Part shown: piece by piece, positions 4,245-55,762 of the stretch | Numbering within the stretch: the first letter of the stretch is position 1 | How the letters are laid out: every line of letters starts with the position of its first letter | Origin: an uncultured Bacteroidales bacterium | GTDB lineage: Bacteria; Bacillota_I; Bacilli_A; ML615J-28; CAG-698 | NCBI GenBank assembly: GCA_964407835.1 | Contig: CAYOXB010000001.1 | Location: forward strand, 45,174 to 109,173 | Length of the DNA stretch: 64,000 bases | Direction: 5' to 3' | Program-made: the position numbers and the translations under genes | Notes under the pieces: generated by a model | Database searches by the model: none | What the model saw: the letters and a program-made list of their open reading frames with translations, nothing else | What the model was told of the DNA's origin: nothing

Positions 4245-6134
4245 TTAGTTTGCAGGGATTGTTGAATAGTAGTTTTTAGTTTGAACAAATCCTGTAGAAG
4301 GATTTTCAACTGTAATTAAGAAACTTATTTGAGTTGTAGTCGCAGGTAACTTAACTATTCTACCATTATTATTAACAAGATCCGGATTATTTGAAACTAG
4401 AGTTAAGTTATAATCGCCTAGGAATTTTTCTACTAAATATTCTGCTTCAATCATATTTAATAAATTAGGGATTAATCCATTCATTCTCATAGTTTGAGGA
4501 CAGTTTTTACCACTATAGTTTTGGTGGAAAGTAACTCTTTCTAAACCTAAATCAAATTCATGTAATAAGTGTGAAGTTAATTTAGAAGTATAATGCCATG
4601 TTAAATACAAGTCACTGCCTTTATCTACACATGTTTCCATACTAACACTATTATAGTTACCACCATGATTAGAAATTAGTTTATAAGTAGTGTTATAGTA
4701 ACTATTATTCATATACCAATTTCCGTTTGTGCCAATTTCTAAGTAAATCCCATAGTCATTAATAGCAGAGGCTTTTAATATATTATTATTCGAATCTTTA
4801 GGTGCTTGAATAATAGTTTTTGCACCATTAAGTGTATAGAAACCACTAGCATCAATTCCAAGAGTTGGTCTAATTTTACTTGTTGCTTTAACGCCTGTAT
4901 CGTTTAAACCGAATTTTCTTGAACCATCTCCAGCATGCCATGTAGGTCTGTTAGTTTCAACTTGTTGATAAACACCTTCTTGCCCTACACTAAAATGCCA
5001 AGATACTTGTCCGCCACCACTTCCATTATACATATAAGTAGCGTGCATTGCTGCACCTGCATTAACATTTGTATTACCAGTATCATGAATAGTAATAAAT
5101 TTTACATCTTCCTTATTCATTACATTTGTAATAGCAGGTAAGTTTGGCGAGTTTTCAGGTGTCATTCTTCTAACAAAAGGATATTCTCCGAAGAAATAGT
5201 TAACTACGCTTCCCAATACTTTTGTTGTGTAGTTTGTCCCACCATATGCAGTTACGTTTTGAACGATTGGTTTATCAACAACTAAATGGTCGATTAAATC
5301 CATAACATCCCAATAGAATTCTACTTTTAGAGTTCCTTTTTTAGTTCCATCTTGAATTGATTTAGCAGTAAATGTAACTTCGCCATAACTAACTATAGTT
5401 ACAAATCCATCTTCACCAATAGCAGCAATACTGTCATCGCTTGTTTCCCATACTACGTTTTGATCCGCAGCTTTTGGAAGAACAGTTGCTGATAGTTTAT
5501 AATTGGCTGTTGTTTTGATTCTAGTGTCATTAATATTTGCACTAATATTTACTTCACTAACAGCAGCTTCAGTAACTTCAATAGTAAATGCTTTGCTAGT
5601 CCCATTTTCAAGTGAATGCACTTCAAATTGGGCAACCCCAGGTTTAACACCAGTAACTAGTCCTGTTTGGCTAACTTTAGCAATACTAGCAGTTAATGCA
5701 ACCCACATAACACCGTGTCCAGTATCTGCTTTATCAACAGCTGTAAGTTGAATTTCTTCACCAGCAATAACAGTAGTCGGGCCAGTCACTGTTAATTGAG
5801 TAGCTGGATCAATTTCCTCTTCATTTACTTTTACATTAATAGTTATTTTTAGTTTAGGATACTCTTCAACAGTAACCGTGATTTTAGCACTACCAGATTT
5901 TAATGCTGTAATTTTTCCGTCTTCGTCTACGCAGACAACGTCTTCACAATCAGATTCAAATTTAAATTTTACATTGTTTTCTGTACCATTTACTTTAGGT
6001 AGAATAACTTCCTCATCACCTATTTCTAAGGTTAGGTTAGATTTAGAAGCGCTTAAAGTAACGTCTTCAGTATTGTTACAACCTACTAATAGAAAACCGA
6101 TTAAAACAAAAAGTAAGATAATACTTTTTTTCAT
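4245..6134 (-). CDS. Lipoprotein with Big_2 (bacterial Ig-like) domain and amidase_2-type N-acetylmuramoyl-L-alanine amidase domain (paralog 2)
   Basis: Lipobox 'LLVGCN'; Big_2-like 'GSAKITVTV'; amidase_2 signature 'IHDTG...SWHFSVG...WHAGDG...ETCVDKGS...HQNYSGKNCPQ'. Confidence 0.7.
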   Translation of the reverse strand: MKKSIILLFVLIGFLLVGCNNTEDVTLSASKSNLTLEIGDEEVILPKVNGTENNVKFKFESDCEDVVCVDEDGKITALKSGSAKITVTVEEYPKLKITINVKVNEEEIDPATQLTVTGPTTVIAGEEIQLTAVDKADTGHGVMWVALTASIAKVSQTGLVTGVKPGVAQFEVHSLENGTSKAFTIEVTEAAVSEVNISANINDTRIKTTANYKLSATVLPKAADQNVVWETSDDSIAAIGEDGFVTIVSYGEVTFTAKSIQDGTKKGTLKVEFYWDVMDLIDHLVVDKPIVQNVTAYGGTNYTTKVLGSVVNYFFGEYPFVRRMTPENSPNLPAITNVMNKEDVKFITIHDTGNTNVNAGAAMHATYMYNGSGGGQVSWHFSVGQEGVYQQVETNRPTWHAGDGSRKFGLNDTGVKATSKIRPTLGIDASGFYTLNGAKTIIQAPKDSNNNILKASAINDYGIYLEIGTNGNWYMNNSYYNTTYKLISNHGGNYNSVSMETCVDKGSDLYLTWHYTSKLTSHLLHEFDLGLERVTFHQNYSGKNCPQTMRMNGLIPNLLNMIEAEYLVEKFLGDYNLTLVSNNPDLVNNNGRIVKLPATTTQISFLITVENPSTGFVQTKNYYSTIPAN

Positions 6135-6245: not shown

Positions 6246-8129
6246 TTAAATTTTAATTGTTGAATAGTAGTATTTAGTTGATGTAACACCTGTTGTAGGA
6301 TGAGTTACTTCTACAAGGAAACTTACTTGAGTAGTAGCATCTGGTAATTTAATAATCTTACCATGATTATCTACATATTCAGGATTGTTTGATGTAAGAG
6401 TGAATGTATAATCACCAAAGAATTTAGCAATTAAATATTCAGCTTCAACTAATTTTCTAAAATCCCCAACTAGGCCATTTCTTCTCATTGTTTGTGGGCA
6501 GTTTTTACCACTAAAACTATGGTGGAATTGTTGTCTATCTAAACCTAGGTTATTAGCTAATAATACTTCAGAAACAATTTTAGCTGTATAGTGCCATGTT
6601 AAGAATACATCTGAGCCAGCGTTAACCATAGTTTCAATACCAATACTGTTTCTATTTCCACCTTGGTTAGAAATGTTTGGTCCTTGAGTTGAATAATAAG
6701 AATTATTTATAAACCAATTTCCATTTGTACCGACTTGCATAGCAATTCCATAATCATTAATTGCTGCAGCTGTTAAGATTGAACCATCAGTATGTCTTGG
6801 AGCTTCAACAATTGTTTTTACACCATTAAGTGTATAGAAACCAGTAGAATCAATTCCAAGCGTAGGTTTAATTTTACTTACAGCTTTAACGCCTGTATCG
6901 TTCATCCCATATACTCTTGATCCGTCTGAAGCATGATATGATATTTCATTTAGTGGAATTTGTAGGTAAACACCATCATTACCAATACTGTAATGCCATG
7001 ATGTTCCACCGCCACCATTATATACATAGTTTGCATGTGCAGAAGCAGTTGCTCCTGGTGCAGCTGAACCAGTGTCATGAACAGTAACGAATTCAGTTGA
7101 TGGTTGTAAAATTCCAGGTCTGTTTTCGTTTGTGCTTGGAGCTATCTTTTCATAGTAAGGATATGTTCCAAAATAATAACTAGTTACACTACCTTTAATT
7201 ACTTGAGGATATTTTTCATATCCTGCTTCATAACCATAGTAGAATGCATTTTTATCAACAACAGGATTTTCAATTATAATGTAATCCATTAAGTCCATAA
7301 CGTCCCAATGGAATTCTACTGTAAGAGTAGCTTTCTTTGTTCCATCTTGAATAGATTTAGCAGTAAATGTAACTTCACCATAAGTAGAGATTGTTACAAA
7401 TCCATCTTCACTAATTAAAGCTATGCTATCATCGCTTGTTTCCCATACTACATTTTGATCTGCAGCTTTTGGAAGAACAGTAGCTGATAGTTTATAACTT
7501 GCAGTTGTTTTAATTTTTGCATCACCTATATTAGCACTAATACTAACTTCACTAACTGGAGCTTCAGTAACTTCAATAGAAAAAGCTTTGCTAGTTCCAT
7601 TTTCAAGTGAGTGAACTTCAAATTGAGCAGTTCCAGGTTTTACACCTGTAACTAAACCAGTTTGACTTATTTTTGCAATTCCAGCAGTTAAAGCAACCCA
7701 CATAACACCATGTCCTTGGTCTGCTTTATCAACAGCTGTAAGTTGAATTTCTTCGCCTGCAACAACAGTAGTTGGGCCAGATACTGTTAATTGAGTAGAA
7801 GGATCAATTTCCTCTTCATTAACAGTTACATTAACAGTTGCTTTTAGTTTAGAAAATTCTTCAACAGTAACGGTAATTTTTGCACTACCAGATCCTACAG
7901 CTTTTACTTTCCCTTCTGCATCAACTGTTGCAACTTCTAAATTATCTGATTCAAAATTAAATTTGACATCTTTTTCTGTACCTTCTATTTTAGGTGTGAT
8001 AACTTTTTCTTCCCCAATTTCTAGTGTTACACTAGTTGGTGAAGCGCTTAAAGTAACGTCCTCAGTTTTATTACAACCTACTAATAGAAAACCGATTAAA
8101 ACAAAAAGTAAGATAATACTTTTTTTCAT
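6246..8129 (-). CDS. Lipoprotein with Big_2 domain and amidase_2 domain (paralog 1)
   Basis: First 20 aa identical to the 4245-6134 product. Residues about 100-280 are nearly identical, while the C-terminal amidase_2 half is diverged ('VHDTG...SWHYSIG...IGIETMVNAGSD...HHSFSGKNCPQ'). Confidence 0.7.
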   Translation of the reverse strand: MKKSIILLFVLIGFLLVGCNKTEDVTLSASPTSVTLEIGEEKVITPKIEGTEKDVKFNFESDNLEVATVDAEGKVKAVGSGSAKITVTVEEFSKLKATVNVTVNEEEIDPSTQLTVSGPTTVVAGEEIQLTAVDKADQGHGVMWVALTAGIAKISQTGLVTGVKPGTAQFEVHSLENGTSKAFSIEVTEAPVSEVSISANIGDAKIKTTASYKLSATVLPKAADQNVVWETSDDSIALISEDGFVTISTYGEVTFTAKSIQDGTKKATLTVEFHWDVMDLMDYIIIENPVVDKNAFYYGYEAGYEKYPQVIKGSVTSYYFGTYPYYEKIAPSTNENRPGILQPSTEFVTVHDTGSAAPGATASAHANYVYNGGGGTSWHYSIGNDGVYLQIPLNEISYHASDGSRVYGMNDTGVKAVSKIKPTLGIDSTGFYTLNGVKTIVEAPRHTDGSILTAAAINDYGIAMQVGTNGNWFINNSYYSTQGPNISNQGGNRNSIGIETMVNAGSDVFLTWHYTAKIVSEVLLANNLGLDRQQFHHSFSGKNCPQTMRRNGLVGDFRKLVEAEYLIAKFFGDYTFTLTSNNPEYVDNHGKIIKLPDATTQVSFLVEVTHPTTGVTSTKYYYSTIKI

Positions 8130-15096: not shown

Positions 15097-15107
15097 AATT
15101 ATTGTAA

Positions 15108-15272
15108 ATCTTCAGGGCAGGGTGAGATTCCCGACCGGCGGTAAAGTCCGCGAGCTTGAAAGAGCATGAATTGGTGAAACTCCAATACCGATAGTATAGT
15201 CTAGATGAAAGAAGAGCTATATTTAATATGCTTTTTTTTGCTCGCGAAGTTTTTTCGCGAGTTTTATTTTTT
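15108..15272 (+). promoter_or_regulatory. FMN riboswitch (RFN element) with terminator expression platform
   Basis: Matches the RFN consensus: 'cagggcagggtgagattcccgaccggcggtaaagtccgcgagc...ggtgaaactcc...ccgatagtatagtctagatg'. It is followed by the hairpin 'ctcgcgaagttttttcgcgag' plus TTTTATTTTTT (15241-15271). Confidence 0.85.
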
Positions 15273-15291
15273 AAAAAGAAAGAGGGTTATT

Positions 15292-16185
15292 ATGTTTTTA
15301 AGTAGTTTTTGGCAAGATCATTGGTTAGAAATTAGTGTTTCTACAGTGTTTGTGCTAGCAAGTATTGCTTTACTTGTTGCACTGGTTATTAATATCGGAA
15401 AGCAAGAAACAAGCAAAAAAGTCTATGTAATAGGAAGTTTTATATTTGCACTTGTATTGTTCAGTGTTAACTTCTTTATTTATAAAGATTATAAGAATGC
15501 ATTGAGTCAAGACCCGACTACTGAATTTCCACTTGCAAATGTTTTTGCATATAATGCACTTATAATTATTGCATTTTCTCTAGTTGGTTACTTAGTTATC
15601 TCAAGGAGGAATAAAGAAGAAGAAAAAATGACAGTTGCTAATGTTGCAATGTTAAGTTTATTAGTAGCACTATCAACAGTATTGATGTTGTTTGGAATAC
15701 CAATACTACCTGGATTTACATTTTTAAAAGTTGAAATTAGTGCTTTAATTTATTTCTTAGTTTATTTGTGGTTTGGAATAAAACCAACAACGGTAGTCAT
15801 TTTTCTTACAAATATAATTCATGCTATTATGCCATCATTTGGTGTTCAAATTGTACCTGGACTTGATCAAATGGTAAATGTTATAGCAGTATTTACATTT
15901 TTGTTTCCTTCATTTATTGCATTTAGGAAATTAGAAGAAGGAGAAGTTCCACCGTTTAAATCTGTTTTAGTTTGTACTATAATAGGCGTTGTGTTTACTT
16001 CAGTCTTTATGCTTTTATATAATTACTTTATAAATTTACCACTTATTTATGGTATGAATATGTCATTTGAGGATGTGCTAAAAATATTTGGGTTATTTAA
16101 TATTATAAAATGGAGTACTGTTAGTGCTGCCATAGTATTACTATACAAAAAACTATATGAATTGAAGAATCAATTAGTAAGATAA
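15292..16185 (+). CDS. Membrane protein, putative riboflavin transporter (ECF S-component/RibU-like C-terminal half)
   Basis: RBS AAGAAAGAGGG before ATG 15292. The protein is multi-TM. The ORF-track start at 15205 lies inside the riboswitch and is rejected. Confidence 0.6.
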   Translation: MFLSSFWQDHWLEISVSTVFVLASIALLVALVINIGKQETSKKVYVIGSFIFALVLFSVNFFIYKDYKNALSQDPTTEFPLANVFAYNALIIIAFSLVGYLVISRRNKEEEKMTVANVAMLSLLVALSTVLMLFGIPILPGFTFLKVEISALIYFLVYLWFGIKPTTVVIFLTNIIHAIMPSFGVQIVPGLDQMVNVIAVFTFLFPSFIAFRKLEEGEVPPFKSVLVCTIIGVVFTSVFMLLYNYFINLPLIYGMNMSFEDVLKIFGLFNIIKWSTVSAAIVLLYKKLYELKNQLVR

Positions 16186-22967: not shown

Positions 22968-23029
22968 TCAATAAGATTGACAAGGAACAAAAGAAGTTGT
23001 ATAATAATTAATATAAAACTGTGAAGTGG

Positions 23030-23236
23030 ACAAGATTAATAAAATTTTTATTTATAGCGAAAGTATGATAGTGAAAGATACTTAATAAAACTTATTAGTT
23101 ACTACCGTGGAGTTGAACTCGAAAGAGATTCCGTTATTCAGCGTTAATGAAATTGAGCGCAGTAGTGTTTTTAAACACTATTGAATTAAGGTGGTACCAC
23201 GTTATAATACGTCCTTTTTAGAAGGGCGTTTTTATT
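23030..23236 (+). promoter_or_regulatory. T-box leader (Thr) upstream of thrS
   Basis: Conserved T-box 'aattaaggtggtaccacg' (23184-23201), then the terminator cgtcc/tttttagaa/gggcg plus a T-run (about 23208-23236). Stem I region with ACU/ACC candidates ('ttagttactaccgtgg'). Confidence 0.8.
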
Positions 23237-23251
23237 TTTTAGGAGGATAAT

Positions 23252-25162
23252 ATGAAAATTAGTTTTTTAGATGGAAGTGTGAGTGAATATAAAGATGGCC
23301 TAAGTGCTATGGATATTGCTAAAAGCATATCTCCATCTCTAGCAAAGAAATCAATATTTGCTAAAGTAAACGGTGAAGATTATGATTTGAACAGACCAAT
23401 ACTAGCTGATGCAACACTTGAATTAATTACAAAGGAGAGAGTTGAAGCTTTAGAAGCTTTGAATCATTCTTGTAGTCATTTACTTGCAAGTGCTGTTAAG
23501 AAATTATATCCGAAGGCACAATTTGGAGTTGGTCCAGCAATTGAAGAAGGATTCTATTATGACATTAATCCTGGGGATAATGTTAAGATAACTGAAGCTG
23601 ATCTAGTTAAAATAGAAGATGAGATGAAGAAAATTGCTAGTAAAAATTATGATTTTATTCGTGAAGAATTATCAAAAGAAGAAGCTTTGAAGAAGTTTTC
23701 TTATGATAAATACAAACAAGAAATTATAAATGAACTTGAGGATGGTGTAGTTATTTCTACATACACTCATGGGGATTTTTCTGATCTTTGTAGAGGACCG
23801 CATTTAGATAATACTAAGCATTTAAAATATTTTAAATTACTTAATATTAGTGGTGCCTATTGGAGGGGAGATTCTAAAAATGAGCAGCTTCAAAGAATAT
23901 ATGGAACATGCTTTTTTAATCAAGAAGATTTGAATAAGCACTTAGAAGTATTAAAAGAAAGAGCTGAGAGAGATCATCGTAAACTTGGGCGTGAGCTTGA
24001 ATTATTCATGTTAAGCGAATATGGTCCTGGCTTTCCTTTCTGGTTACCTAAGGGTATGATTCTTCGTAGAGCACTAGAAGAATACTGGTTCAAGGTTCAC
24101 ACTAGAGAAAATTATCAGTTCATTCAAACTCCAATTATGCTTAATAAAGACTTATGGGAGATATCAGGACACTGGTTAAACTATAAAGATAATATGTATA
24201 TTTCAGAAATTGACAAGCATGAATTTGCGATTAAACCGATGAATTGTCCTGGAGGATTGTTGGTATATAAACACTCCCTACACTCATATAAAGACCTTCC
24301 TCTTAGAGTTGGTGAACTAGGATTAGTTCATAGACATGAAGCAAGTGGGGCTTTAAATGGCTTATTTAGAGTAAGAAACTTCACTCAAGATGATGCTCAT
24401 ATCTATATGAGAGAAGATCAAATTATCGATGAAGTAGGAAATTTAATTAAATTATTTGATGAAATTTATTCAGTTTTTGGTTTGAAATATCACATTGAAT
24501 TATCTACAAGGCCTGAAGAAAAGTATATTGGGTCTATCGAAGTTTGGGATAAATCAGAAAAAGCACTAGCAAAAGCATGCGAAGCAGTAGGAAAAAATTA
24601 CAAAGTAAATCCTGGTGATGGAGCGTTTTATGGACCTAAATTAGACTTCAAATTACGCGATTCAATGAATAGAGTATGGCAATGTGGAACTATTCAGCTA
24701 GATATGAATTTACCAGAAAGATTTGATATATTCTATATTGGTGAAAATGGTGAGAAGGTTAGACCAGTTATGCTACATAGAGCTATTTTTGGTTCGCTTG
24801 AAAGATTTATTGGAATTTTAATTGAACATTATGGTGGAGCTTTTCCAACATGGCTTGCCCCTGTACAAGTAAAACTAATTCCGGTTAATAATACTTATCA
24901 TTTAGAGTATGTAAATAAAGTGAAAGATATTTTATTAGATGCTAATATTAGAGTAGAAGTAGATTCTAGAGAAGAAAAATTAGGCTATAAAATTAGAGAA
25001 GCACAAACTAAGAAAATACCTTATCAATTAATTATTGGTGATAATGAGGTTAAAGAAGAAGTTTTAACTTATCGTGCTTATGGTAAGCAAGAATCAGTAA
25101 CTTTATCTATTCTCGAATTTGTGGAAAAAATTCAAAAAGAAATTAAAAACTTAGGTCAATAG
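23252..25162 (+). CDS. thrS: Threonine--tRNA ligase
   Basis: TGS domain, editing domain with 'HSCSHLLA', and class II core. Confidence 0.97.
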   Translation: MKISFLDGSVSEYKDGLSAMDIAKSISPSLAKKSIFAKVNGEDYDLNRPILADATLELITKERVEALEALNHSCSHLLASAVKKLYPKAQFGVGPAIEEGFYYDINPGDNVKITEADLVKIEDEMKKIASKNYDFIREELSKEEALKKFSYDKYKQEIINELEDGVVISTYTHGDFSDLCRGPHLDNTKHLKYFKLLNISGAYWRGDSKNEQLQRIYGTCFFNQEDLNKHLEVLKERAERDHRKLGRELELFMLSEYGPGFPFWLPKGMILRRALEEYWFKVHTRENYQFIQTPIMLNKDLWEISGHWLNYKDNMYISEIDKHEFAIKPMNCPGGLLVYKHSLHSYKDLPLRVGELGLVHRHEASGALNGLFRVRNFTQDDAHIYMREDQIIDEVGNLIKLFDEIYSVFGLKYHIELSTRPEEKYIGSIEVWDKSEKALAKACEAVGKNYKVNPGDGAFYGPKLDFKLRDSMNRVWQCGTIQLDMNLPERFDIFYIGENGEKVRPVMLHRAIFGSLERFIGILIEHYGGAFPTWLAPVQVKLIPVNNTYHLEYVNKVKDILLDANIRVEVDSREEKLGYKIREAQTKKIPYQLIIGDNEVKEEVLTYRAYGKQESVTLSILEFVEKIQKEIKNLGQ

Positions 25163-46984: not shown

Positions 46985-47254
46985 ATGTACCATTCCTTCT
47001 ATAAAACTATTGAATATATTATAACATAAAAAGGCTGAATAAAAAAGCACAAAATATACAATTTTTTTTGTTTTTTTATTGCTAATTTAAAAAAAATATT
47101 CTTAGTTAATTGTTGATTAGGAAAAATTTAACAAGCAAAAACACAATAATAAAGGATTAAAATTATCTTGCATTTTTTAAAAAAATAATATTTGTTAAAT
47201 GGTGGTTCGTTTGGTATAATATAAATACCTATGGAAATAAAAAGGGTGAAAAAT

Positions 47255-50200
47255 ATGGTAAGAGCAGAATACAAAAAATTAAATATTTCTGTTAGAGAAA
47301 GTCATTTAATTGATATTTATTCCGATACTTCTAAATATTTAGAACTTGGAACCATTCATTTCGCTATTTTGAAAAAGTTATTAAAGTATGAACAAATTAA
47401 CTTTAAAGAAATAGCGTTTTTACCCATTCAAAATTTTGGTATAGGAAAAAGCACAATTAATAATGAAAATCTTAAATCTACTATGCCCTATTATTATTTC
47501 AATAATGTTAACCAAAAGAATAAACCTTATCAAGTTTTTTTAACTCATGGATTAATTAGGTATCGTGATTTACAAGATAAAGAAATATTCTCCCCACTGA
47601 TTTTAATACCTGTTGAAATTTTATTTGATGGTGATGAAGTATATATTCAAATGATTTCTGAACCGATTGAGAACAAACCTTTATTAGAGTATTTGGATCG
47701 TGCTAAGAAAATACTTATTCCCAGTGTAGATAAACTTGATACTCTTGGAAATATTGAAAAGTATTTTATGAATATTCTTAAATATAGTGAATTCAATTTC
47801 GAGTTTGAGAACTATATGACTTATGCATATGTCCAAAAACCAGAGATTATTATTAATCAAAATAAGTTTAATTTAAGTAGACAATATGATGACTTCTTAT
47901 ATGAAAATTTATTCAGTGAAGACCATATAGTATTTTATTCAAAAAAACATAATAGAAAACAAAGAAGAGCGCTGATGCAAGCTATTGAAGGCGAATCATT
48001 TGTTATTGCTGGTAGACTTGGAACTGGTAAAACAACAGTAATGAAAGACATTGCTGTGAATGCTATAAGTAGTGGCAAAAGAGTATTATATGTATCTAAT
48101 GTAGATAATACACTTAACGAAGTAAATGAATTTATGAAAGGAAAAGGACTTGGTTATTATGTTACTAATTTCACAAAACCTTTTTCCACATTTTTAAAAT
48201 CTGATGAACTTAAATTTGTTCAAGGAGATTTAACTAGAGCAAGTAATTTTGATAGTTTATTATCAAACTATAAATATATAAATGATTATCAACTAGCAAT
48301 GACAGGAAGAGTACTTGATCATCGCTTTATTGATGTAGTTAATGAACTTATAAACTTAAGTAGAGTCGATAAAGAAAAAATAGAAATAGATAATTTATCC
48401 GATATATACAAACACGAGTATTTAGAAATAGTCGACTCTGTAAAGACAATCCAACAATCTATTGGAAATTTTGATAATTTTAAAGACAGTATTTGGAAAG
48501 ACATTCCAATTATTAATGATATTAAATATCCTAATCAAGTAATGTTTTTGATTCACCAAGTTTATAATGGCTTTGATGAGTTAAAAAAATATAAAGATAG
48601 TTTAATTGAAAATTATAAGTTTGTGGAAATATCTAATTATGCTTTTATGAAAAACATAATTAATAATATAACGCAATTGCCTGTACAAGATGTTCCAAAG
48701 TCTTGGGCTGAACAAGATAATTATGAAAAAGCCAAAACTGAATATCATAATTTAAAGAATTTAATTTTCACATTACAAGAACTTGAATATGATCTTGATA
48801 TAAGGTTTGAGAATTTAGATAAGTTTGAAATTAAAAAAGAGCTAGAGATTTTATATGGTAGTTTCTTCACTAGCGATAATCTTGATAAAATTAATAAAAT
48901 TATAGATGATCGTTTAGAAATTGTTGTTACTTTGAATAAAATAACAATGCAAATCGATATTTTTAATAAAGCAATTCATAAAATTAAAAATGCAATAGAT
49001 TATAATTTTGAACTATCAAACGATGTGCTTAATGAAGTACTTGCAATGTCTCAAACATTATTAGATACAAAAGCAAATTCAAAATTTATTAAAGCAATTG
49101 TGAGAGGTGAATTTGAAAACACTTATAATATTGCAAATAAGTATTTTGATAAGTATAACGATATTAATAACCAAATAGAAAACTTATTTTTAGATCTGGA
49201 ACTTCCTAATATTGAAGAATTAGATATAAAGAATAAAATACAACTTATTATTGATTTTGAAAGAGGATTGAAATTAAAACGACCATATCGTCAAATTGTT
49301 TCAAAGTTAAAAGCAAAAGATATTGAAAACTATAAATCAGTATTAATTAATATTAAAAAATCTCAACAATTAGAAATTGAAAAAGAAGAAGTAGCTGATA
49401 AATTCATAGCACTTTTAGATTGTGAACTAAAAAAAGAATACTTAGATGATTTTAAAAATCTTTATGATTATGTAGAAAATATTGAAGATGCTCATATGAA
49501 GGCAAAGATTTTAAAATCCTTAAGAAGGATTTCTAATTTACATGAAAATCAAACTAAAAATTTCTCTAGAGTTTTAAGTTATTTTATTAAATCACATCAA
49601 AAGATAATAGAGATGTATAAAGAGTTATTGATCCATGAATTTGTCGATGAAAAAAATGAATTTGATGAGATATTAAAAGATATCTATTCAATCAATTCTT
49701 ATATTAAGAAATTGAATGAATCAAATGATACTTTATATTCAATGAAAAAAATAAGCCGTGATGAATATATCAAAGCTCAAGATTATTATTATCTAGATGA
49801 AACATATAATAAAATAGCGGAAGTTAAAGAGGAACTAAAGTTCAATAAAGAATTCCCATATTTGTTTGGTTCGATATATAAAAGACAGGCTACAGATTTA
49901 GCGTATCTTGCTAGAGTTATTCAAGCATATAGACTATATGTAAGTTCATTTGAATCGTATTCTTCTGCGGTGAATAGTTTAAATCCAGAAGTTTATTCAG
50001 GTATAACAAATGTATTAAATAAATCATCTGTTGCTATTGATGATTTAAACGAAGTGTTTAAGCAGTATTTTAAGATTTTCAAAAATTCTGTTTCACAACT
50101 ATACTATGGATTGTTTGATGATAATTTAAGTAATTTATTAATTCAAATGGAAAACAGAGAAGATTTAATTACATATTTGAAAATCACAGATAATTTACAA

Positions 50201-51559
50201 GTTCTTGAAAAATATCATTTATATAAACTCATTGAACATATAGTTAGTATGGAAAGAACAACAACACTATTAACTGATTTTAAATTTACATACTTTTCTA
50301 CATTGAATGATATATATCTAAAGGATAATCAATATTTAAGAGATTATAAAACATTTGAACTTGCTCTTAAAACTACAGTCGAAGTAGAAGAAGAGATTAT
50401 GAGAGCAATAGAAGAAAGAATAGTTAGAAAGATTATTAGACGTAGTGTAAATAAATACAATATGTTTGGGTTTAAACATTTAGATTATAATGCTTATCTT
50501 AAAAAAACAAATAGAATAAAGCACTTAGTTCTTACAAATACTCAAATCTTAAACAATTTTATTGACCCTAATTTATTTGACTTAATATTAATTGATGATG
50601 CCCATATATTCTCAGCTAGTGAGTATGTATATGCACTGGAAGGAAAACAAGTAATAGTTAGTGGTGAGTTGCAATTCCAAGAAGCAGCACTCAACAACTT
50701 GATTTCAAGAATAAGTATGGGTAAGAGTATAGAACTAAATTATAGATACGATATAATACCTAAAGGCTTTAAAGACTTCACACGAAGATTGAAAGCTCCA
50801 ATTTACAATCAATACTATGAAAACTATGGTGTTGAGATTATTGAAAAGGGTATTTATAAATATGTAGCTAATCTTTTTACAATTAATAAAAATTGTAGTG
50901 TTAACTTATTTATAGCTGATGCTGAAGTTCAAAGACAAGCATATGATAAAATAGCTAATTTCTTACTTACAAATAATTTTAAAGAAGAAGAAATTATTGA
51001 GATTTATAAAAGACAACTAAATATAGTTGATTTAAAAAAGGGTTATTTAATTAATGCTAATTATAATGTTTTGTTTATTCAAGATTATTATGAACTTGAT
51101 ACTGAGTATTTGGTTGTTAATATGATCGATAACCTTATCTTAACTAGAAAGAAATTAATCATTTATGATAATAAAGATTTTCTTTCCACAAAATCTAATG
51201 CAATATTCTTAACAGAACTCAATAAGATAATTAATTCAAGAGATGTATTTAAAAAGCCTGAACCTATAGGCACCATTGAAAAACTAATTAGTGCTCTTGA
51301 AGCTGAAGATATAACATGCTTTGCTTCTGAGCTTGGGACATTTATAATAAAAGTAGGTTATAGCTTATACGGTATTACTGTTTATTGGGATTCTAGAAAA
51401 ACAAATTATGATATATTAAATGAATTTAGAGATATTCATTCTCTAAAAGATCCTAGGATCAAGAAAAACATTATTGTCTGGTCAATGGAGTTGATTGAGA
51501 ACTTTGATGGTGTTATTCAAAGAATACTAAAAGAGGTAGCGCATGATTCGGGGAAGTAA
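47255..51559 (+). CDS. Giant Upf1-like SF1 helicase/NTPase (1434 aa from 'MVRAEY'; DUF4011-helicase-like architecture) with an insertion of about 850 aa between motifs I and II
   Basis: Q-motif/Walker A 'QRRALMQAIEGESFVIAGRLGTGKTT' (nt 48011-48037). Motif II/III-like 'LILIDDAHIFSASEYVYALEGKQVIVSGELQ' (nt 50582-). Motif IV-like 'LNYRYDII'. Motif VI-like 'ILTRKKLIIY'. RBS AAAGGGTG before ATG 47255. Confidence 0.6.
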   Translation: MVRAEYKKLNISVRESHLIDIYSDTSKYLELGTIHFAILKKLLKYEQINFKEIAFLPIQNFGIGKSTINNENLKSTMPYYYFNNVNQKNKPYQVFLTHGLIRYRDLQDKEIFSPLILIPVEILFDGDEVYIQMISEPIENKPLLEYLDRAKKILIPSVDKLDTLGNIEKYFMNILKYSEFNFEFENYMTYAYVQKPEIIINQNKFNLSRQYDDFLYENLFSEDHIVFYSKKHNRKQRRALMQAIEGESFVIAGRLGTGKTTVMKDIAVNAISSGKRVLYVSNVDNTLNEVNEFMKGKGLGYYVTNFTKPFSTFLKSDELKFVQGDLTRASNFDSLLSNYKYINDYQLAMTGRVLDHRFIDVVNELINLSRVDKEKIEIDNLSDIYKHEYLEIVDSVKTIQQSIGNFDNFKDSIWKDIPIINDIKYPNQVMFLIHQVYNGFDELKKYKDSLIENYKFVEISNYAFMKNIINNITQLPVQDVPKSWAEQDNYEKAKTEYHNLKNLIFTLQELEYDLDIRFENLDKFEIKKELEILYGSFFTSDNLDKINKIIDDRLEIVVTLNKITMQIDIFNKAIHKIKNAIDYNFELSNDVLNEVLAMSQTLLDTKANSKFIKAIVRGEFENTYNIANKYFDKYNDINNQIENLFLDLELPNIEELDIKNKIQLIIDFERGLKLKRPYRQIVSKLKAKDIENYKSVLINIKKSQQLEIEKEEVADKFIALLDCELKKEYLDDFKNLYDYVENIEDAHMKAKILKSLRRISNLHENQTKNFSRVLSYFIKSHQKIIEMYKELLIHEFVDEKNEFDEILKDIYSINSYIKKLNESNDTLYSMKKISRDEYIKAQDYYYLDETYNKIAEVKEELKFNKEFPYLFGSIYKRQATDLAYLARVIQAYRLYVSSFESYSSAVNSLNPEVYSGITNVLNKSSVAIDDLNEVFKQYFKIFKNSVSQLYYGLFDDNLSNLLIQMENREDLITYLKITDNLQVLEKYHLYKLIEHIVSMERTTTLLTDFKFTYFSTLNDIYLKDNQYLRDYKTFELALKTTVEVEEEIMRAIEERIVRKIIRRSVNKYNMFGFKHLDYNAYLKKTNRIKHLVLTNTQILNNFIDPNLFDLILIDDAHIFSASEYVYALEGKQVIVSGELQFQEAALNNLISRISMGKSIELNYRYDIIPKGFKDFTRRLKAPIYNQYYENYGVEIIEKGIYKYVANLFTINKNCSVNLFIADAEVQRQAYDKIANFLLTNNFKEEEIIEIYKRQLNIVDLKKGYLINANYNVLFIQDYYELDTEYLVVNMIDNLILTRKKLIIYDNKDFLSTKSNAIFLTELNKIINSRDVFKKPEPIGTIEKLISALEAEDITCFASELGTFIIKVGYSLYGITVYWDSRKTNYDILNEFRDIHSLKDPRIKKNIIVWSMELIENFDGVIQRILKEVAHDSGK

Positions 51560-52118
51560 GAGAATATTTAATGATTTTGTGAGAACGGTTAAACAAGACT
51601 CACATCGTTACTACTATATTAAAAGTAATTTATTAAAAATGCGCGAAGAAAACATTGATATAAATACTCAAATATATGGTGGTCAAACATTACTCCATGT
51701 TGCTTTAAAACTAAAAAACATTAGATTATTTAAATTGTTTTTAAAGTATGGAGTAAATCCGGATATTGCCAATGACTTAGGAGAAGCTCCTATTCATAAG
51801 GCCATTTTAAAAAACGAGTTTAATTTCTTAAAAGCCCTTGTAGGAAATGGCTGTGATATTAATCTTGGTGCTGAACTAGAACAAACTCCTCTTCATTTAG
51901 CTGTAATTACAGGTAATGTAGATATTGTTAAGTATTTAGTTGATAATAATGCTAGAATTTTAATTCAAGATGAAAATTATAATTATCCATTAGATTACGC
52001 AATTGATGAAGGAGATTGTGATATAATTAAGTACTTCTTAACTAAACAGGAAGTAGATGAAACAAGAAAAGAAAAAATTAATCAATTGATGGAAAAAGCA
52101 GGTGAAAAAGAATGTTGA
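51543..52118 (+). CDS. Ankyrin-repeat protein (about 4 ANK repeats), translationally coupled to the helicase
   Basis: 'GQTLLHVALK...GVNPDIAND', 'GEAPIHKAILKNEFNFLKALVGNGCDINL' and 'TPLHLAVITGNVDIVKYLVDNNA'. RBS AAAGAGGTA. Its ATG overlaps the helicase 3' end by 17 nt. Confidence 0.75.
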   Translation: MIRGSKRIFNDFVRTVKQDSHRYYYIKSNLLKMREENIDINTQIYGGQTLLHVALKLKNIRLFKLFLKYGVNPDIANDLGEAPIHKAILKNEFNFLKALVGNGCDINLGAELEQTPLHLAVITGNVDIVKYLVDNNARILIQDENYNYPLDYAIDEGDCDIIKYFLTKQEVDETRKEKINQLMEKAGEKEC

Positions 52119-52918
52119 AATTTCAAGAAATTTTGGATATGATTCGCTCTTATACTGGTGAATATTCTGTAATAGGGTTTGTTCGTTTAGGAATTGATGT
52201 ACTATTATTACTAGCAGTGTTATTTATCGTCTATAAGATAATGAAAAAAAGAACACATGGTGTTCGAGTTTTTCTAGTTGTACTTGGAGCTATTGCTTTA
52301 TATGCAGTAAGCTTTGTGTTCCAATTTAAAATGTTTTTAAAGGTATTGGATTATCTTTTCTTTTGGAGTTTAGGAGCTTTGTTAATTGTATATGCTGGTG
52401 AAATTAGACATTCGCTTGATTATTTCTTTGCACCTACAAAGGTGTCAGCTGCTTATTCAAACAAAGAAGAAAAACAAGAAATTATTAGTACATTAGTTTC
52501 AACTGCAGAGTTCTTATCTAAACGTCGTTTGGGTGCTTTAATAACAGTTGAAAGAGAAGACAATCTTAACTCTTATATTGATAAAGCAATTTTCATCAAT
52601 GGAAATGTTTCTCAAGAGTTACTAACTACAATTTTTACTCCAGGTACTGCAGCTCATGACGGTGCTGTAATTATTCGAAAAAGCAAAATAATGTGTGCAG
52701 CTGCCTATTTCCCGTCGACTGATAGATATGATGTTCCAAAATCACTTGGAACAAGACATAGAGCAGCGATTGGAATTAGTGAGAAGACAGATTCACTTAC
52801 TATCGTTGTAAGTGAAGAAACTGGCTTTATTTCTATTGCAATTGATGGTAATATTAACATTAATCAAACAGTTGAAAAACTAGAAGAAATGTTAGATAGA
52901 TATTTAATCAATAAATAA
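52112..52918 (+). CDS. cdaA: Diadenylate cyclase CdaA (c-di-AMP synthase)
   Basis: Three N-terminal TM segments plus DAC domain 'TPGTAAHDGAVIIR...LGTRHRAAIGISEKTDSLTIVVSEETG'. Its start overlaps the ANK stop (ATGTTGA). Confidence 0.9.
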   Translation: MLKFQEILDMIRSYTGEYSVIGFVRLGIDVLLLLAVLFIVYKIMKKRTHGVRVFLVVLGAIALYAVSFVFQFKMFLKVLDYLFFWSLGALLIVYAGEIRHSLDYFFAPTKVSAAYSNKEEKQEIISTLVSTAEFLSKRRLGALITVEREDNLNSYIDKAIFINGNVSQELLTTIFTPGTAAHDGAVIIRKSKIMCAAAYFPSTDRYDVPKSLGTRHRAAIGISEKTDSLTIVVSEETGFISIAIDGNININQTVEKLEEMLDRYLINK

Positions 52919-52939
52919 CACAAGGTCAATACAAAGTAA

Positions 52940-52967
52940 TTGAAAAATATTTAATTTATGATATAAT
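52940..52967 (+). promoter_or_regulatory. Promoter for the PAS/GGDEF-like gene
   Basis: -35 TTGAAA, a 16-nt spacer, extended -10 TGATATAAT. Confidence 0.5.
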
Positions 52968-53051
52968 GTGAATATATAGAAGGCTAAAAGGATAGAAAGA
53001 ATTTGGTTTAATTACCAAACTAAAAATTAGAAAAGATTAAAGGTGGATTAT

Positions 53052-54554
53052 ATGATTCCAGAATTAGTAGAATTAGTAAAAGAATATTATTATTTATTGT
53101 TTGTTGCTGGTCTAATTGTTATGTTTTTCTTAGTTTTAAGTATTTTACTTAATAAGAAAAAAGCAGCAATTGTTCCAGGAAGCCTTTTTGCTGTATATGC
53201 TATCCTATTTACAGTTTCTGTCTTCTATAAAGAAAAATTAACAGGTAGAATTATTTTAGCTTTTGGCATATATGTATTCCTTGAAGGAGTCTTTACCTTA
53301 GTTATGGCCACAATTTCATATCTTGAAAAACGTAAGTTTAATTTATTGTTTCAATTATCATCTTCGATTGATAGTGCGATATTAGTTTATTTAAATGAAA
53401 AAGGTGAAATAGTATTTTTCACAAAAGAATTCTTAAATATGTTTGATGTTAACAATGCAAAAGACTTTGAACAAATAGTAAAATATGTTCATTTAGGCGA
53501 AAGACAAATGTCATATAAGGCGTTTTTAAAAATCCTAACTTATGAAAAAGAAGAAGACTATGCACTCATTATTGATTTATTTAATACTAAAGAAAAAAGA
53601 TTGCATGTATCTAAAAGAAAGATTATCAATAATGGTAAATTACTTGGTTATGTATTAATCAATAAAAAGGATCAAGTATTCCAAGAAGATACACCAACAA
53701 CATATCAAGTTGATGCAATTAACTTAGTTAATGAAGCACTTGCTATTTATGAAAGTGATAATAATAAACTACTAATTAATAATAAAATGCAAAACTTACT
53801 CGGTGTAGATAGTGTAAATAGTTTAGATGAATATATTTATGCTGAAGATAAAAAGCAAATTGAAAAAAGAGCAAGAGCAGAAGGCGAAAAATCTAAGATT
53901 TACTATCGCATTAATGCTCAAAACAATCGTGTATGGGTTTTAGAGACTTGTACAATTGCTAGGGGCAAATTAACTAAAGTAGTTAGAGAAACAGACTTTA
54001 AAAACTTAATTTATAATTTTAGAGATTATTCTAAAATGGTTCAAGAATTAGAGCATAATATAGCAATGAGTACAAATTTTGCTTTAGTCTTTGTAACTCT
54101 ACATACACTTACTCAAATAAAAGAAAAAATTGGTAAAGATGCTTCAATGGTTCTTGCTACGCAATTCTTTATTAATTTAAATAATGAAATTAAAGATTTA
54201 AAAGTATTTGAAATAGGTTATTATAAATTTGCATTCTTTATTAAAAATGAAGCTGCATATAAAAATATTTTAAGAGATCTTAATAATAATGCTTCTAGAC
54301 TGCAAAAGACAAAAATTATATTTAATGATTTAGCATTTGAAATCAAGACTTATTTAGGGCTTGTGGAAAGCAAAAATGTTCTTAATCCAACGCCTGAATT
54401 AATGATTGAAGCTGCAGAAGGTGCATTAGAATTAGCTTCTAATAAAAACTATCCGAAAGACTTTAGCATTTATATTTCTAAAGTTAAAGAATTAGAAGGC
54501 GAAGAGAGAGAAATAGACTTAAGTGATGATTTTCTACAAAGGATTATGAAGTAA
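53052..54554 (+). CDS. Membrane-anchored sensor-like protein: 3 TM segments, PAS-like region(s), C-terminal degenerate GGDEF-like domain
   Basis: Hydrophobic N-terminus. PAS-like 'SSIDSAILVYLNEKGEIVFFTKEFLNMFDV'. Cyclase-fold-like 'ALVFVTLHTLTQIKEKIGKDASMVLATQFF...VFEIGYYKFAFFI', where YYKF replaces GGDEF. No YbbR repeats are visible, so it does not look like CdaR. Confidence 0.45.
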   Translation: MIPELVELVKEYYYLLFVAGLIVMFFLVLSILLNKKKAAIVPGSLFAVYAILFTVSVFYKEKLTGRIILAFGIYVFLEGVFTLVMATISYLEKRKFNLLFQLSSSIDSAILVYLNEKGEIVFFTKEFLNMFDVNNAKDFEQIVKYVHLGERQMSYKAFLKILTYEKEEDYALIIDLFNTKEKRLHVSKRKIINNGKLLGYVLINKKDQVFQEDTPTTYQVDAINLVNEALAIYESDNNKLLINNKMQNLLGVDSVNSLDEYIYAEDKKQIEKRARAEGEKSKIYYRINAQNNRVWVLETCTIARGKLTKVVRETDFKNLIYNFRDYSKMVQELEHNIAMSTNFALVFVTLHTLTQIKEKIGKDASMVLATQFFINLNNEIKDLKVFEIGYYKFAFFIKNEAAYKNILRDLNNNASRLQKTKIIFNDLAFEIKTYLGLVESKNVLNPTPELMIEAAEGALELASNKNYPKDFSIYISKVKELEGEEREIDLSDDFLQRIMK

Positions 54555-54571
54555 TTTAAGTTTTCAAATCG

Positions 54572-54600
54572 GGACTAATTAATTAGTCCCTTTATTTTTT
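54572..54600 (+). terminator. Terminator
   Basis: gggactaatt/aattagtccc followed by TTTATTTTTT. Confidence 0.8.
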
Positions 54601-54613
54601 AAAGAGGTATGAT

Positions 54614-55762
54614 ATGTTTGATGTTATTTTATTAATTGCTGGAAAAGGCAAGAGAACAAAATTAGATTATAATAAAACTCTATACTTGATTAATGATAAA
54701 CCTATATTTAAGTATTCACTTGATATCTTTTTAAAGATGAAAGAATTGAATAAGGTTGTTTTAGTCATTGATAAAGAAGATGAAGATATTGTAAATGAAT
54801 ATATTAAAGATATAAATTCTAATAAAATTGAAATAGTATATGGTGGACTTGAAAGACAAGATAGTGTAAAAAATGGAATCGATAAATGTTCAAGCGATGT
54901 TGTTTTAATTCACGATGGTGCAAGAGCATATATAGAAGAAGGACAAGTTCAAAGTGTTTATGATAATGCTAGAAGATATAATGCTTCTGCTTTAGCAGTA
55001 AAAACTACGGATACTATAAGAGAATTAAAAAAAGGCTCTTCAAACATTGTTGATCGCAATTTACTTTGGAATATGCAAACGCCACAAGGTGTTAATTTAC
55101 AGATGTTTAAAGAAGCTCTTAAAAAAGCATATGAAGATAATTATTATGGAACAGATGATTTAAACTTACTTGAAAAATATTTTGATATTGTACCTAAGCT
55201 TGTAGAAGGAAGTAAAAAGAATCTAAAATTCACAACAATTGATGATTTAGATTATTTAAAATTTATATTAGGAGAGCAAAAGATGGAATATAGAATAGGT
55301 CATTCTAATGATACTCATCGTTTAGAGGCGGGAAGAAAGTTAATCTTAGGTGGAGTTGAGATAGACTATCATTTAGGGCTAATTGGTCATTCTGATGCTG
55401 ATTGTATTTATCATGTTGTAAGCGAAGCTATTATAGGTGCTCTAGGACTTGGTGATATTGGAAGTCATTTTCCGGATAATGATAAAAAATACAAAGATCA
55501 AGACTCTAGTTATTTTGTTGTTGAAGCAAGGAAGTTAATGGAAAAGGAATTATATATTATCAATAATTTAGACTTGATTGTTTATGCAGAGAATGTTTAT
55601 TTAAACCCTCATATAAATACAATAAGAGATAATATTGCGAAGCTTTTGATCTGTGATAAATCAAGAATTAATATAAAAGCAACAAGAAGAGAAAAGCTAG
55701 GGTTTGTTGGTAGAGAAGAAGGAATATCAGCTGAAGCAGTAGTTTTGCTGAAAAAGAAGTAA
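54614..55762 (+). CDS. ispDF: Bifunctional MEP cytidylyltransferase / MEcPP synthase (IspDF)
   Basis: IspD N-half 'ILLIAGKGKR'. IspF C-half 'RIGHSNDTHRL...GHSDADCIYHVVSEAIIGALGLGDIGSHFPD'. Confidence 0.9.
   Translation: MFDVILLIAGKGKRTKLDYNKTLYLINDKPIFKYSLDIFLKMKELNKVVLVIDKEDEDIVNEYIKDINSNKIEIVYGGLERQDSVKNGIDKCSSDVVLIHDGARAYIEEGQVQSVYDNARRYNASALAVKTTDTIRELKKGSSNIVDRNLLWNMQTPQGVNLQMFKEALKKAYEDNYYGTDDLNLLEKYFDIVPKLVEGSKKNLKFTTIDDLDYLKFILGEQKMEYRIGHSNDTHRLEAGRKLILGGVEIDYHLGLIGHSDADCIYHVVSEAIIGALGLGDIGSHFPDNDKKYKDQDSSYFVVEARKLMEKELYIINNLDLIVYAENVYLNPHINTIRDNIAKLLICDKSRINIKATRREKLGFVGREEGISAEAVVLLKKK

Follow-up and report, generated by a model that had tools for sequence, protein, structure and literature searches.

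Three tightly overlapping genes, hel, ank and cdaA, are located on the + strand of the 64,000-nucleotide (nt) stretch of DNA analyzed here (contig CAYOXB010000001.1 of assembly GCA_964407835.1, positions 45,174 to 109,173 of the contig; hereafter, the window) and encode, respectively, a divergent Upf1-like helicase-family nucleoside triphosphatase of superfamily 1B (SF1B), a small ankyrin-repeat protein (ANK) and a membrane-anchored diadenylate cyclase (DAC) producing cyclic di-AMP (c-di-AMP). The comparison of related sequences supports the view of hel-ank-cdaA as a core, vertically inherited operon of an uncultured Acholeplasmatales-like clade (class Bacilli), whose internal junctions appear to be under selection, and we lean towards considering Hel and ANK as the lineage-specific partners of CdaA in a translationally coupled three-gene operon.

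Organization of the hel-ank-cdaA locus

The gene hel (47255-51559, stop codon TAA at 51557-51559) encodes a protein of 1434 amino acids (aa), followed by ank (51543-52118, 191 aa, stop codon TGA at 52116-52118) and cdaA (52112-52918, 268 aa). The ATG of ank at 51543 and the hel stop codon, ending at 51559, define an overlap of 17 nt, and the cdaA start codon at 52112 lies within the ATGTTGA (gaATGtTGA) shared with the TGA of ank, which makes the second overlap 7 nt long. The coordinates, overlaps and identities of the three genes given in the first-pass annotation of this DNA were all reproduced, the latter by Pfam and NCBIfam matches. Shine-Dalgarno-like sequences were recognized 5' of each gene: AAGGGTGA before the hel start at 47255, AAGAGGT before ank and AGGTGA before cdaA. 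A longer reading of hel from an ATG at 47231 is possible as well; the start is most likely at 47255, because this codon has the Shine-Dalgarno-like sequence, is placed ~35 nt 3' of a -10 element, gives the 1434-aa protein also called in identical contigs and corresponds to the N-terminus common to the homologues.

The hairpin scan of the + strand found no terminator-like site between the start of hel and 52250, in agreement with the initial description of the genes as not separated by terminators; the sole such site inside hel-ank-cdaA was a weak 6-bp stem within cdaA (52251-52265), and the region as a whole contained 4 sites against 1.7 ± 1.3 expected. A promoter-like site matching the consensus is present upstream of hel on the same strand (47192-47220; TTGTTA, 17 nt, extended -10 TGgTATAAT; 10 of 12 matches plus TG). 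The region has its best promoter-like match in the site already noticed in the first pass 3' of cdaA (52940-52967, + strand; TTGAAA, 16 nt, extended -10 TGaTATAAT; 11 of 12 plus TG), which sits in the 133-nt gap 52919-53051 and from which the gene at 53052-54554 is probably transcribed separately. As a class, such sites were uninformative in this AT-rich DNA, with 69 found against 68.3 expected by chance. The Rfam search detected no cis-regulatory RNA at or near the trio, the only matches in the window being an FMN riboswitch and a T-box elsewhere. Co-transcription of the three genes is regarded as likely. Operators of CtsR, expected in case of a clpC-operon-like regulation, were also sought: at 3 mismatches, the window contained 5 matches, fewer than the 15.5 expected by chance, and none of them was at the locus.

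On the other side of the region upstream of hel lies a divergent class II ribonucleotide reductase (RNR) gene. Its mechanically derived open reading frame (ORF) starts with GTG at 47050 (862 aa), and the gene calls of identical contigs use ATG at 46984 (840 aa). The latter is most likely the true start and, therefore, the intergenic region extends over 270 nt, from 46985 to 47254. It is indeed AT-rich (19.6% GC), as had been pointed out, albeit its extent had been given too short (47051-47254). Its proposed role as a divergent control region shared with the RNR gene found no support as a significant feature: the juxtaposition is particular to this genome, and in most relatives RNR and hel are separated by a Clp-ATPase gene or by others. 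The GC content of hel (25.2%) was low compared to RNR (33.6%), cdaA (31.5%) and the whole window (29.6%). The horizontal acquisition of hel hinted at by this value was rejected, since hel is vertically inherited along with its neighbors; the low GC fits a fast-evolving protein, the least conserved one in the block, and not a recent acquisition.

Conservation of the gene order

The loci used for comparison came from a GTDB scan with one genome per species (31 loci), from metagenome contigs with Hel homologues and from three loci chosen by CdaA. The junction counts rest on 38 related loci with a few near-duplicates included, such as L037 and L044. Over these loci the identity to the window proteins was 23-51% for Hel, 34-77% for ANK and 37-77% for CdaA. 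The cdaA gene was located directly 3' of hel or hel-ank in all 38 loci, with ank in between in 36. In the two loci lacking ank, cdaA directly followed hel, either overlapping it (L045) or after a gap of 60 nt (L011). The hel-ank genes overlapped in 33 of the 36 loci and were at most 4 nt apart in the other three, and the ank-cdaA genes overlapped in 20 of 35, the rest being separated by no more than 19 nt. Not a single gene was inserted within the trio in the 38 loci, and no junction exceeded 20 nt except for the above-mentioned hel-cdaA gap. In the GTDB species-representative scan taken separately, ank and cdaA were found directly behind hel in 29 of the 29 informative loci (those among the 31 where the contig continues past hel), and, apart from the absence of ank in L011 and L045, the same order was observed in the metagenome contigs whose Hel homologues had 49, 40, 33, 28, 25, and 22% identity. 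A test unbiased by hel started from CdaA instead: three of its distant homologues (46, 48, and 49% identity) were taken from a search whose best 120 matches all came from the same group; in each of the three loci a gene for a ~1410-aa protein and a gene for a ~188-aa protein were positioned immediately upstream of cdaA, thus reproducing the trio.

The surroundings of the trio were much less uniform. Upstream of hel, the neighbor was RNR in the window and a gene for a Clp/Hsp100-like ATPase, HflX, a metallo-beta-lactamase-fold protein, a GH88 protein or an oxidase elsewhere. The interval between cdaA and ispD/ispF, which nearly all relatives have ~1-4 kb 3' of cdaA, contained genes for methylglyoxal synthase, a 400-530-aa membrane protein and 5-formyltetrahydrofolate cyclo-ligase (5-FTHF cyclo-ligase) in differing combinations, and in L011 the downstream genes encoded trigger factor, ClpX and Lon. 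The conservation of the trio, unlike the overlap of its genes, exceeds chance. The simplest reason for selection on the junctions would be a stoichiometric co-production of proteins working together.

The first-pass annotation had offered two alternatives for this arrangement. The functional connection of the helicase/ankyrin pair with c-di-AMP synthesis received strong comparative support, and none of the 38 loci had cdaA-cdaR-glmM in this position with the helicase and ankyrin genes elsewhere, so that this part was not refuted. The other, a capture of cdaA into an accessory operon, was not supported: hel and ank are core genes in their own right, vertically inherited and intact in a conserved housekeeping synteny throughout the clade. 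No report on an arrangement of cdaA with ankyrin and helicase genes was found in the literature searched.

The cyclase and its usual partners

The CdaA protein scored above the cutoff of TIGR00159, the NCBIfam CdaA equivalog (204.7 vs 188.8 bits), and contained the Pfam DAC (DisA_N) domain PF02457 (132.1 bits vs a threshold of 27), but reached only 34.1 bits on the DisA model with its cutoff of 201 and, therefore, is not of the DisA type. Both catalytic motifs, DGA (in HDGAVII) and RHR (in GTRHRAA), are present and aligned with their counterparts in PDB 9g0g. The N-terminus contains three hydrophobic segments, read straight from the sequence, within residues ~20-95. Against the solved CdaA structures the match had an E-value of 4e-40, with residues 24-266 aligned to the near full-length chain 9g69_C; a CdaA-GlmM complex (7ojs) was also among the matches. 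Judging from these features, CdaA looks canonical and catalytically competent. A second cdaA or disA copy, whose presence elsewhere had been suggested for checking, was not found within the window, nor was any other DAC gene. The absence of cdaR and glmM at the locus noted in the first pass was confirmed: the next genes downstream encode a PAS-like/GGDEF-like protein and IspDF, and neither YbbR/CdaR nor GlmM (PGM domain) was detected by Pfam and NCBIfam at the locus or in the rest of the window.

The ankyrin-repeat protein

ANK matched the Pfam families Ank_2 (81.8 vs 27.3 bits) and Ank (74.3 vs 21.1 bits) and has four ankyrin repeats. Its orthologues form a discrete group of 175-209 aa present only in metagenome-assembled genomes (MAGs) of the same clade, and ankyrin domains were found in all 33 ANK homologues. 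The protein P0067, considered as the most distant of these homologues, had an unrelated gene context and was discarded as a generic ankyrin protein. Two apparent fusions were also rejected. An ANK-CdaA fusion in L037 proved to be separate genes, since the ORF listing shows a stop codon and an 18-nt gap, and a Hel-ANK fusion in the 1684-aa Hel homologue P0032 had no ANK similarity by BLASTP, its extra length being an insertion in the C-terminal part in a lineage without ank.

The Hel protein

The Hel sequence alone gave weak P-loop matches in Pfam, NCBIfam, and PADLOC. A profile built from 13 Hel homologues matched IGHMBP2 in the PDB (E 2.8e-9), with an alignment spanning the LN..Q motif and Walker A and weaker at Walker B and motif III. 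The AlphaFold2 model of residues 236-1434, obtained with 30 sequences, had a mean pLDDT of 85.1, and its Foldseek search returned Senataxin, Sen1, Aquarius, Dna2, UPF1, IGHMBP2, and nsp13 with a probability of 1.0 and E-values from 5e-5 to 3e-3. The predicted structure is that of a two-RecA-domain helicase fold, and the domains of the whole protein are, in order, an N-terminal DUF4011-like region, a split RecA1, a helical insertion, a reduced RecA2 and a C-terminal restriction-endonuclease-like domain.

The putative DUF4011-like region occupies residues 1-232 (47255-47950); DUF4011 (PF13195) itself was matched weakly by 2 of the 13 family members (E 0.0015). It is followed by the Upf1-type LN..QR..A motif (47951-47974) preceding Walker A (GRLGTGKT, residues 253-260, 48011-48034), which aligned to motif I of IGHMBP2. 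Between the RecA1 motifs Ia and II, the secondary structure of the model placed an all-helical insertion of ~730 residues (residues ~332-1065, 48248-50449), for which Foldseek gave no convincing structural match. Walker B (LILIDDAH, 50582-50605), motif III (GKQVIVSGELQ, 50642-50674) and motif IV (LNYRY, 50735-50749) follow the insertion. The Walker A residues G253, G256, G258, K259 and T261, together with D1114 and D1115 of Walker B, Q1132 and G1137 of motif III and R1164 of motif IV, were invariant or nearly so in the family alignment. In the RecA2-like domain (50717-51169), delimited by the family alignment and the model, motifs V and VI are degenerate: at their positions, placed with the general Upf1 motif definitions, the alignment contained no conserved Gln, Glu or Arg and no motif VI arginine finger. 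The small alpha/beta domain at the C-terminus (51263-51556) has a restriction-endonuclease-like fold of the Vsr/DUF559/Hjc type, in which R1392 was the only invariant residue of the family alignment and conserved acidic catalytic residues were absent. With this pattern of conservation, Hel probably still binds and hydrolyzes ATP, its C-terminal domain is probably catalytically inactive, and processive unwinding and cleavage have probably been lost.

Weak and partial matches of Hel to defense-associated families included ProA (E 4e-18) and Hhe (E 9e-7) in NCBIfam and PDC-S37 in PADLOC (E 1.4e-20; 70.8 bits, residues 244-527), with scores far below the family cutoffs (64.2 vs 1500 bits for ProA and 26.6 vs 2000 for Hhe). 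Taken with the DUF4011 matches, they make Hel look like a strongly diverged offshoot of the DUF4011/SF1 helicase/endonuclease architecture. The word-indexed search yielded 33 Hel homologues, all from MAGs labeled as 'Bacilli', 'Acholeplasmataceae' or 'Tenericutes' and 1373-1684 aa long, except for one partial protein of 884 aa. With phmmer, an exhaustive search of 1.84 billion representative proteins gave 202 matches, among which ~85-100 were full-length Hel proteins (1330-1510 aa, clusters at 50% identity); the distant ones aligned at residues 93-310 and belonged to long DUF4011-type proteins of 1400-2800 aa. Despite being the fastest-evolving member of the trio, Hel remained intact throughout the family.

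Possible function and alternative explanations

The known regulators of CdaA, CdaR and GlmM, act through binding to it. A partnership of ANK and Hel with CdaA is proposed because ankyrin repeats are protein-protein adaptors, the known regulators work by such binding and neither of their genes is present here. In this view, Hel and ANK would stand in for CdaR and GlmM, the partners of CdaA in other Firmicutes. Hel might serve as an ATP-dependent switch on a nucleic-acid-binding scaffold, which binds nucleic acid or senses its state and supplies the regulatory input, and ANK might act as the adaptor, docking on the cytoplasmic DAC domain or bridging it to Hel, so that c-di-AMP synthesis would be tuned to the signal of Hel, similar to the control of DisA by RadA and branched DNA. 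The partnership of Hel/ANK with CdaA, whether functional or physical, seems somewhat probable to us; the nucleic-acid-to-c-di-AMP logic, a tentative extension of it, is rather unlikely.

Several points weigh against the partnership. Among the 51 same-strand junctions of the window (with longest-ORF starts), 19 overlapped and 31 were at most 20 nt apart, including tightly packed unrelated genes such as TrmFO-XerC-dUTPase and PolA-Fpg-CoaE. Gene overlap by itself is thus the norm in this compact genome, not beyond chance, and proves nothing, because overlapping or abutting genes, even in unrelated pairs, are common in it. Synteny within the clade also extends over the wider block from hel to ispD/ispF, and inheritance of the gene order, instead of selection on linkage, could account for part of the conservation. 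Translocation of Hel on nucleic acid or cleavage is doubtful, because the motif V/VI and nuclease residues are not conserved, and its nucleic-acid binding is suggested by the modeled fold. The packing and the wider synteny would also fit a passive inheritance of the order, in which a compact AT-rich genome packs unrelated genes into long co-transcribed, overlapping operons and Hel is a housekeeping ATPase of DNA or RNA metabolism unlinked to c-di-AMP. However, the flanks and the cdaA-ispD interval have been repeatedly remodeled with mgsA, 5-FTHF cyclo-ligase, Clp-like and RNR genes gained or lost, but both internal junctions never opened in the 38 loci down to a Hel identity of ~23%. Moreover, L011 retained the hel-cdaA adjacency despite the loss of ank and different genes on both flanks, and sampling by CdaA only led to the trio in 3 of 3 loci. 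Passive synteny, the main alternative, is considered as possible but rather unlikely.

The control of a diadenylate cyclase by a DNA-repair ATPase has one established case, radA-disA. The clpC-radA-disA operon is cited in PMC8957991. In the relatives of the window genome a Clp/Hsp100 ATPase gene precedes the trio and ispD-ispF follow it. In Bacillus subtilis strain 168 disA is presumably followed by yacL-ispD-ispF, an order which no paper in the literature searched gave; if it holds, hel-ank-cdaA would seem to occupy the radA-disA slot. The comparison with cdaA-cdaR-glmM alone, on which the first-pass annotation relied, was less telling than this positional one. It allows a sharper form of the proposed partnership, in which the interior of an ancestral Firmicute clpC-radA-disA-yacL-ispD-ispF cluster was swapped in situ for the trio as a functional analogue of the RadA-DisA DNA-integrity checkpoint. 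Such a replacement agrees with the relatives in which hel is immediately preceded by a Clp/Hsp100 gene and cdaA is followed by ispD-ispF, as well as with the combination of a helicase fold with a Holliday-junction-resolvase/Vsr-like C-terminal fold in Hel. The yacL-ispD-ispF part is, however, presumed, the Clp-like gene is missing in the window genome, and the Hel motifs V/VI and nuclease residues are degenerate. The likeness is that of an analogy, with no homology between Hel and RadA and a cyclase of the CdaA and not the DisA type, which also weighs on the partnership as far as it leans on this model. We consider a replacement unlikely. The same applies to the boldest version of the proposal, a three-component c-di-AMP checkpoint, in which Hel would sense damaged or stalled DNA or structured RNA and switch the membrane-bound and probably essential CdaA on or off via ANK, having replaced RadA-DisA in situ and taken over the CdaR/GlmM role lineage-wide; such a system is improbable in its full form.

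A further possibility is anti-phage defense, with Hel as a helicase-nuclease sensor of the Hhe/ProA/PDC-S37 type with DUF4011 and the DAC producing a defense signal. DAC domains do act in defense within DAC-containing systems (bioRxiv 10.64898/2026.08.10.743927), and the weak partial matches to ProA, Hhe, and PDC-S37 and the Hhe-like overall architecture of Hel point in this direction. But Hel scored more than an order of magnitude below the family cutoffs and shows no conservation of nuclease catalytic residues; the cyclase, with three transmembrane (TM) helices and a score above the equivalog cutoff, is a canonical CdaA, unlike the minimal DisA_N proteins of ~150 aa and the DS-2C proteins; neither S2TM-beta nor another effector is present; and in every relative examined the locus was a core one in housekeeping synteny and not a variable island. 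A role in defense is, thus, highly improbable. The partnership of Hel and ANK with CdaA is what we prefer, with the above points against it in mind.

Neighboring genes and other features of the window

The gene next to cdaA (53052-54554, + strand) codes for a membrane protein of 500 aa, in which a PAS-like region and a GGDEF-like domain of degenerate sequence were recognized. Neither Pfam nor NCBIfam gave a match for it at default thresholds (PAS_3 at E 0.046), and it contained GYYKF at the GGDEF position, as read by eye; two of its homologues reached 26.2 and 20.4 bits on the Pfam GGDEF model, i.e., above and below the cutoff of 23.8. A homologue of this protein is encoded downstream of cdaA in most relatives, a cyclic di-GMP-type domain being conserved beside a c-di-AMP cyclase gene. 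The protein was also considered as a divergent CdaR and rejected, since the YbbR domain was absent and the homologues had PAS-like and GGDEF domains. The gene is followed by a clean terminator-like hairpin (54571-54590, + strand) and by the fused ispDF gene (54614-55762, + strand, 382 aa), which is the conserved downstream anchor of the block. ispD and ispF were fused in the window and some relatives and separate adjacent genes in others, as seen from the comparison of L007 (15620-16771), L008 (15729-16903) and L012 (13691-14831); a fusion or fission, therefore, has occurred within the clade.

In many relatives a shortened Clp/Hsp100-family ATPase (~650 aa; Clp_N, AAA, AAA_lid_9, and AAA_2 domains) was encoded directly upstream of hel, with gene coordinates 5719-7677 in L007, 5921-7894 in L008, 5964-7940 in L010, 5820-7754 in L044 and 3799-5754 in L037. 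These proteins scored below the ClpA and ClpB cutoffs. The window lacks this gene, hel being adjoined there by the divergent RNR gene. A small methylglyoxal synthase gene (TIGR00160, 185.8 bits vs a cutoff of 146.9) was located between cdaA and the gene of the GGDEF-like protein in several relatives, including L007 (13686-14057), L008 (13761-14114) and L048 (9865-10236), and is not present in the window. A small CBS-domain gene near ispF in relatives was examined as a possible c-di-AMP receptor CbpB/DarB; with 27-32 bits against a cutoff of 125 this assignment was unsupported. A gene for a ThsB-like TIR-domain protein, a component of Thoeris-type defense unrelated to the trio, was located ~7 kb downstream of cdaA in L047 (16757-17278) and L049 (16584-17099).

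The flavin mononucleotide (FMN) riboswitch of the window (15104-15220, 108.5 bits) was found immediately upstream of a gene for a 326-aa energy-coupling factor (ECF) transporter S-component (15205-16185), presumably a riboflavin transporter. The T-box leader (23012-23219, 103.2 bits) precedes a 636-aa ORF (23252-25162), which, judged by eye from its sequence, would encode threonyl-tRNA synthetase. Two tandem paralogous lipoprotein-like genes on the - strand (4245-6134 and 6246-8129; 627 and 629 aa) each encode three Big_2 repeats and an Amidase_2 domain. Such N-acetylmuramoyl-L-alanine amidase domains would be unexpected in case the organism were a wall-less relative of Acholeplasma; the lipoproteins may act on the walls of other bacteria, or the lineage may have peptidoglycan. 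UppS and NagA are also encoded in the window (translations read by eye), and SpoIID- and YunB-like genes are present in relatives. Because of all these genes, the absence of glmM at the locus is not simply a matter of a wall-less lifestyle.

Significance and comparison with known systems

In many Firmicutes c-di-AMP is essential, and in excess it is toxic, and the control of CdaA is a central open question. To our knowledge, CdaR and GlmM are the only partners of CdaA established so far, and both are linked to the cell envelope. The lineage-wide coupling of CdaA to a helicase-family ATPase and an ankyrin protein represents a natural experiment for a different c-di-AMP input, possibly the nucleic-acid status. 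It provides two concrete candidate regulators of CdaA, a new class of candidate partners for a CdaA operon and the first functional context for an orphan family of ~1400-aa proteins, and presents a DUF4011/Hhe-like architecture as a core gene rather than a gene of defense islands. Hel and ANK are, thus, good candidates for a previously undescribed control of c-di-AMP synthesis.

The locus shares with cdaA-cdaR-glmM of Firmicutes the same canonical CdaA and a tight operon with two non-enzymatic candidate partners. In contrast to the latter, where a YbbR protein and phosphoglucosamine mutase are encoded downstream of cdaA in the first position, the cyclase gene here is the last of the three and is preceded by the genes of the SF1B helicase-like NTPase and the ankyrin protein. 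With radA-disA of the B. subtilis clpC operon it has in common a cyclase gene immediately behind a gene of a P-loop ATPase of the DNA-metabolism type and, in relatives, what may be the same chromosomal slot from the Clp ATPase to ispD/ispF. The differences are in the ATPase, SF1B/Upf1-like in Hel and RecA/DnaB-like in RadA, in the ankyrin adaptor interposed here, and in the cyclase, which in contrast to DisA has three TM helices and lacks the helix-hairpin-helix (HhH) DNA-binding domain.

The overall architecture of Hel resembles that of Hhe, ProA and PDC-S37 in the possibly DUF4011-like N-terminus, the Upf1-like helicase core and the C-terminal endonuclease-like fold. It differs from them in its partial, sub-threshold matches, the ~730-residue family-specific insertion, degenerate motifs V/VI and the lost nuclease residues, as well as in being a single-copy, vertically inherited gene obligatorily linked to cdaA. 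A core DUF4011 gene is known from Pseudomonas aeruginosa (PMC10250203). The best structure and profile matches to the ATPase core of Hel were UPF1, IGHMBP2, Senataxin/Sen1, Aquarius, Dna2, and nsp13, i.e., Upf1-like SF1B helicases, with which it shares the LN.xQ..A motif, Walker A, Walker B, motif III and the YR of motif IV, while its identity to them is as low as 9-14% and a huge RecA1 insertion, a reduced RecA2 and the absence of conserved motif VI arginines set it apart from these helicases.

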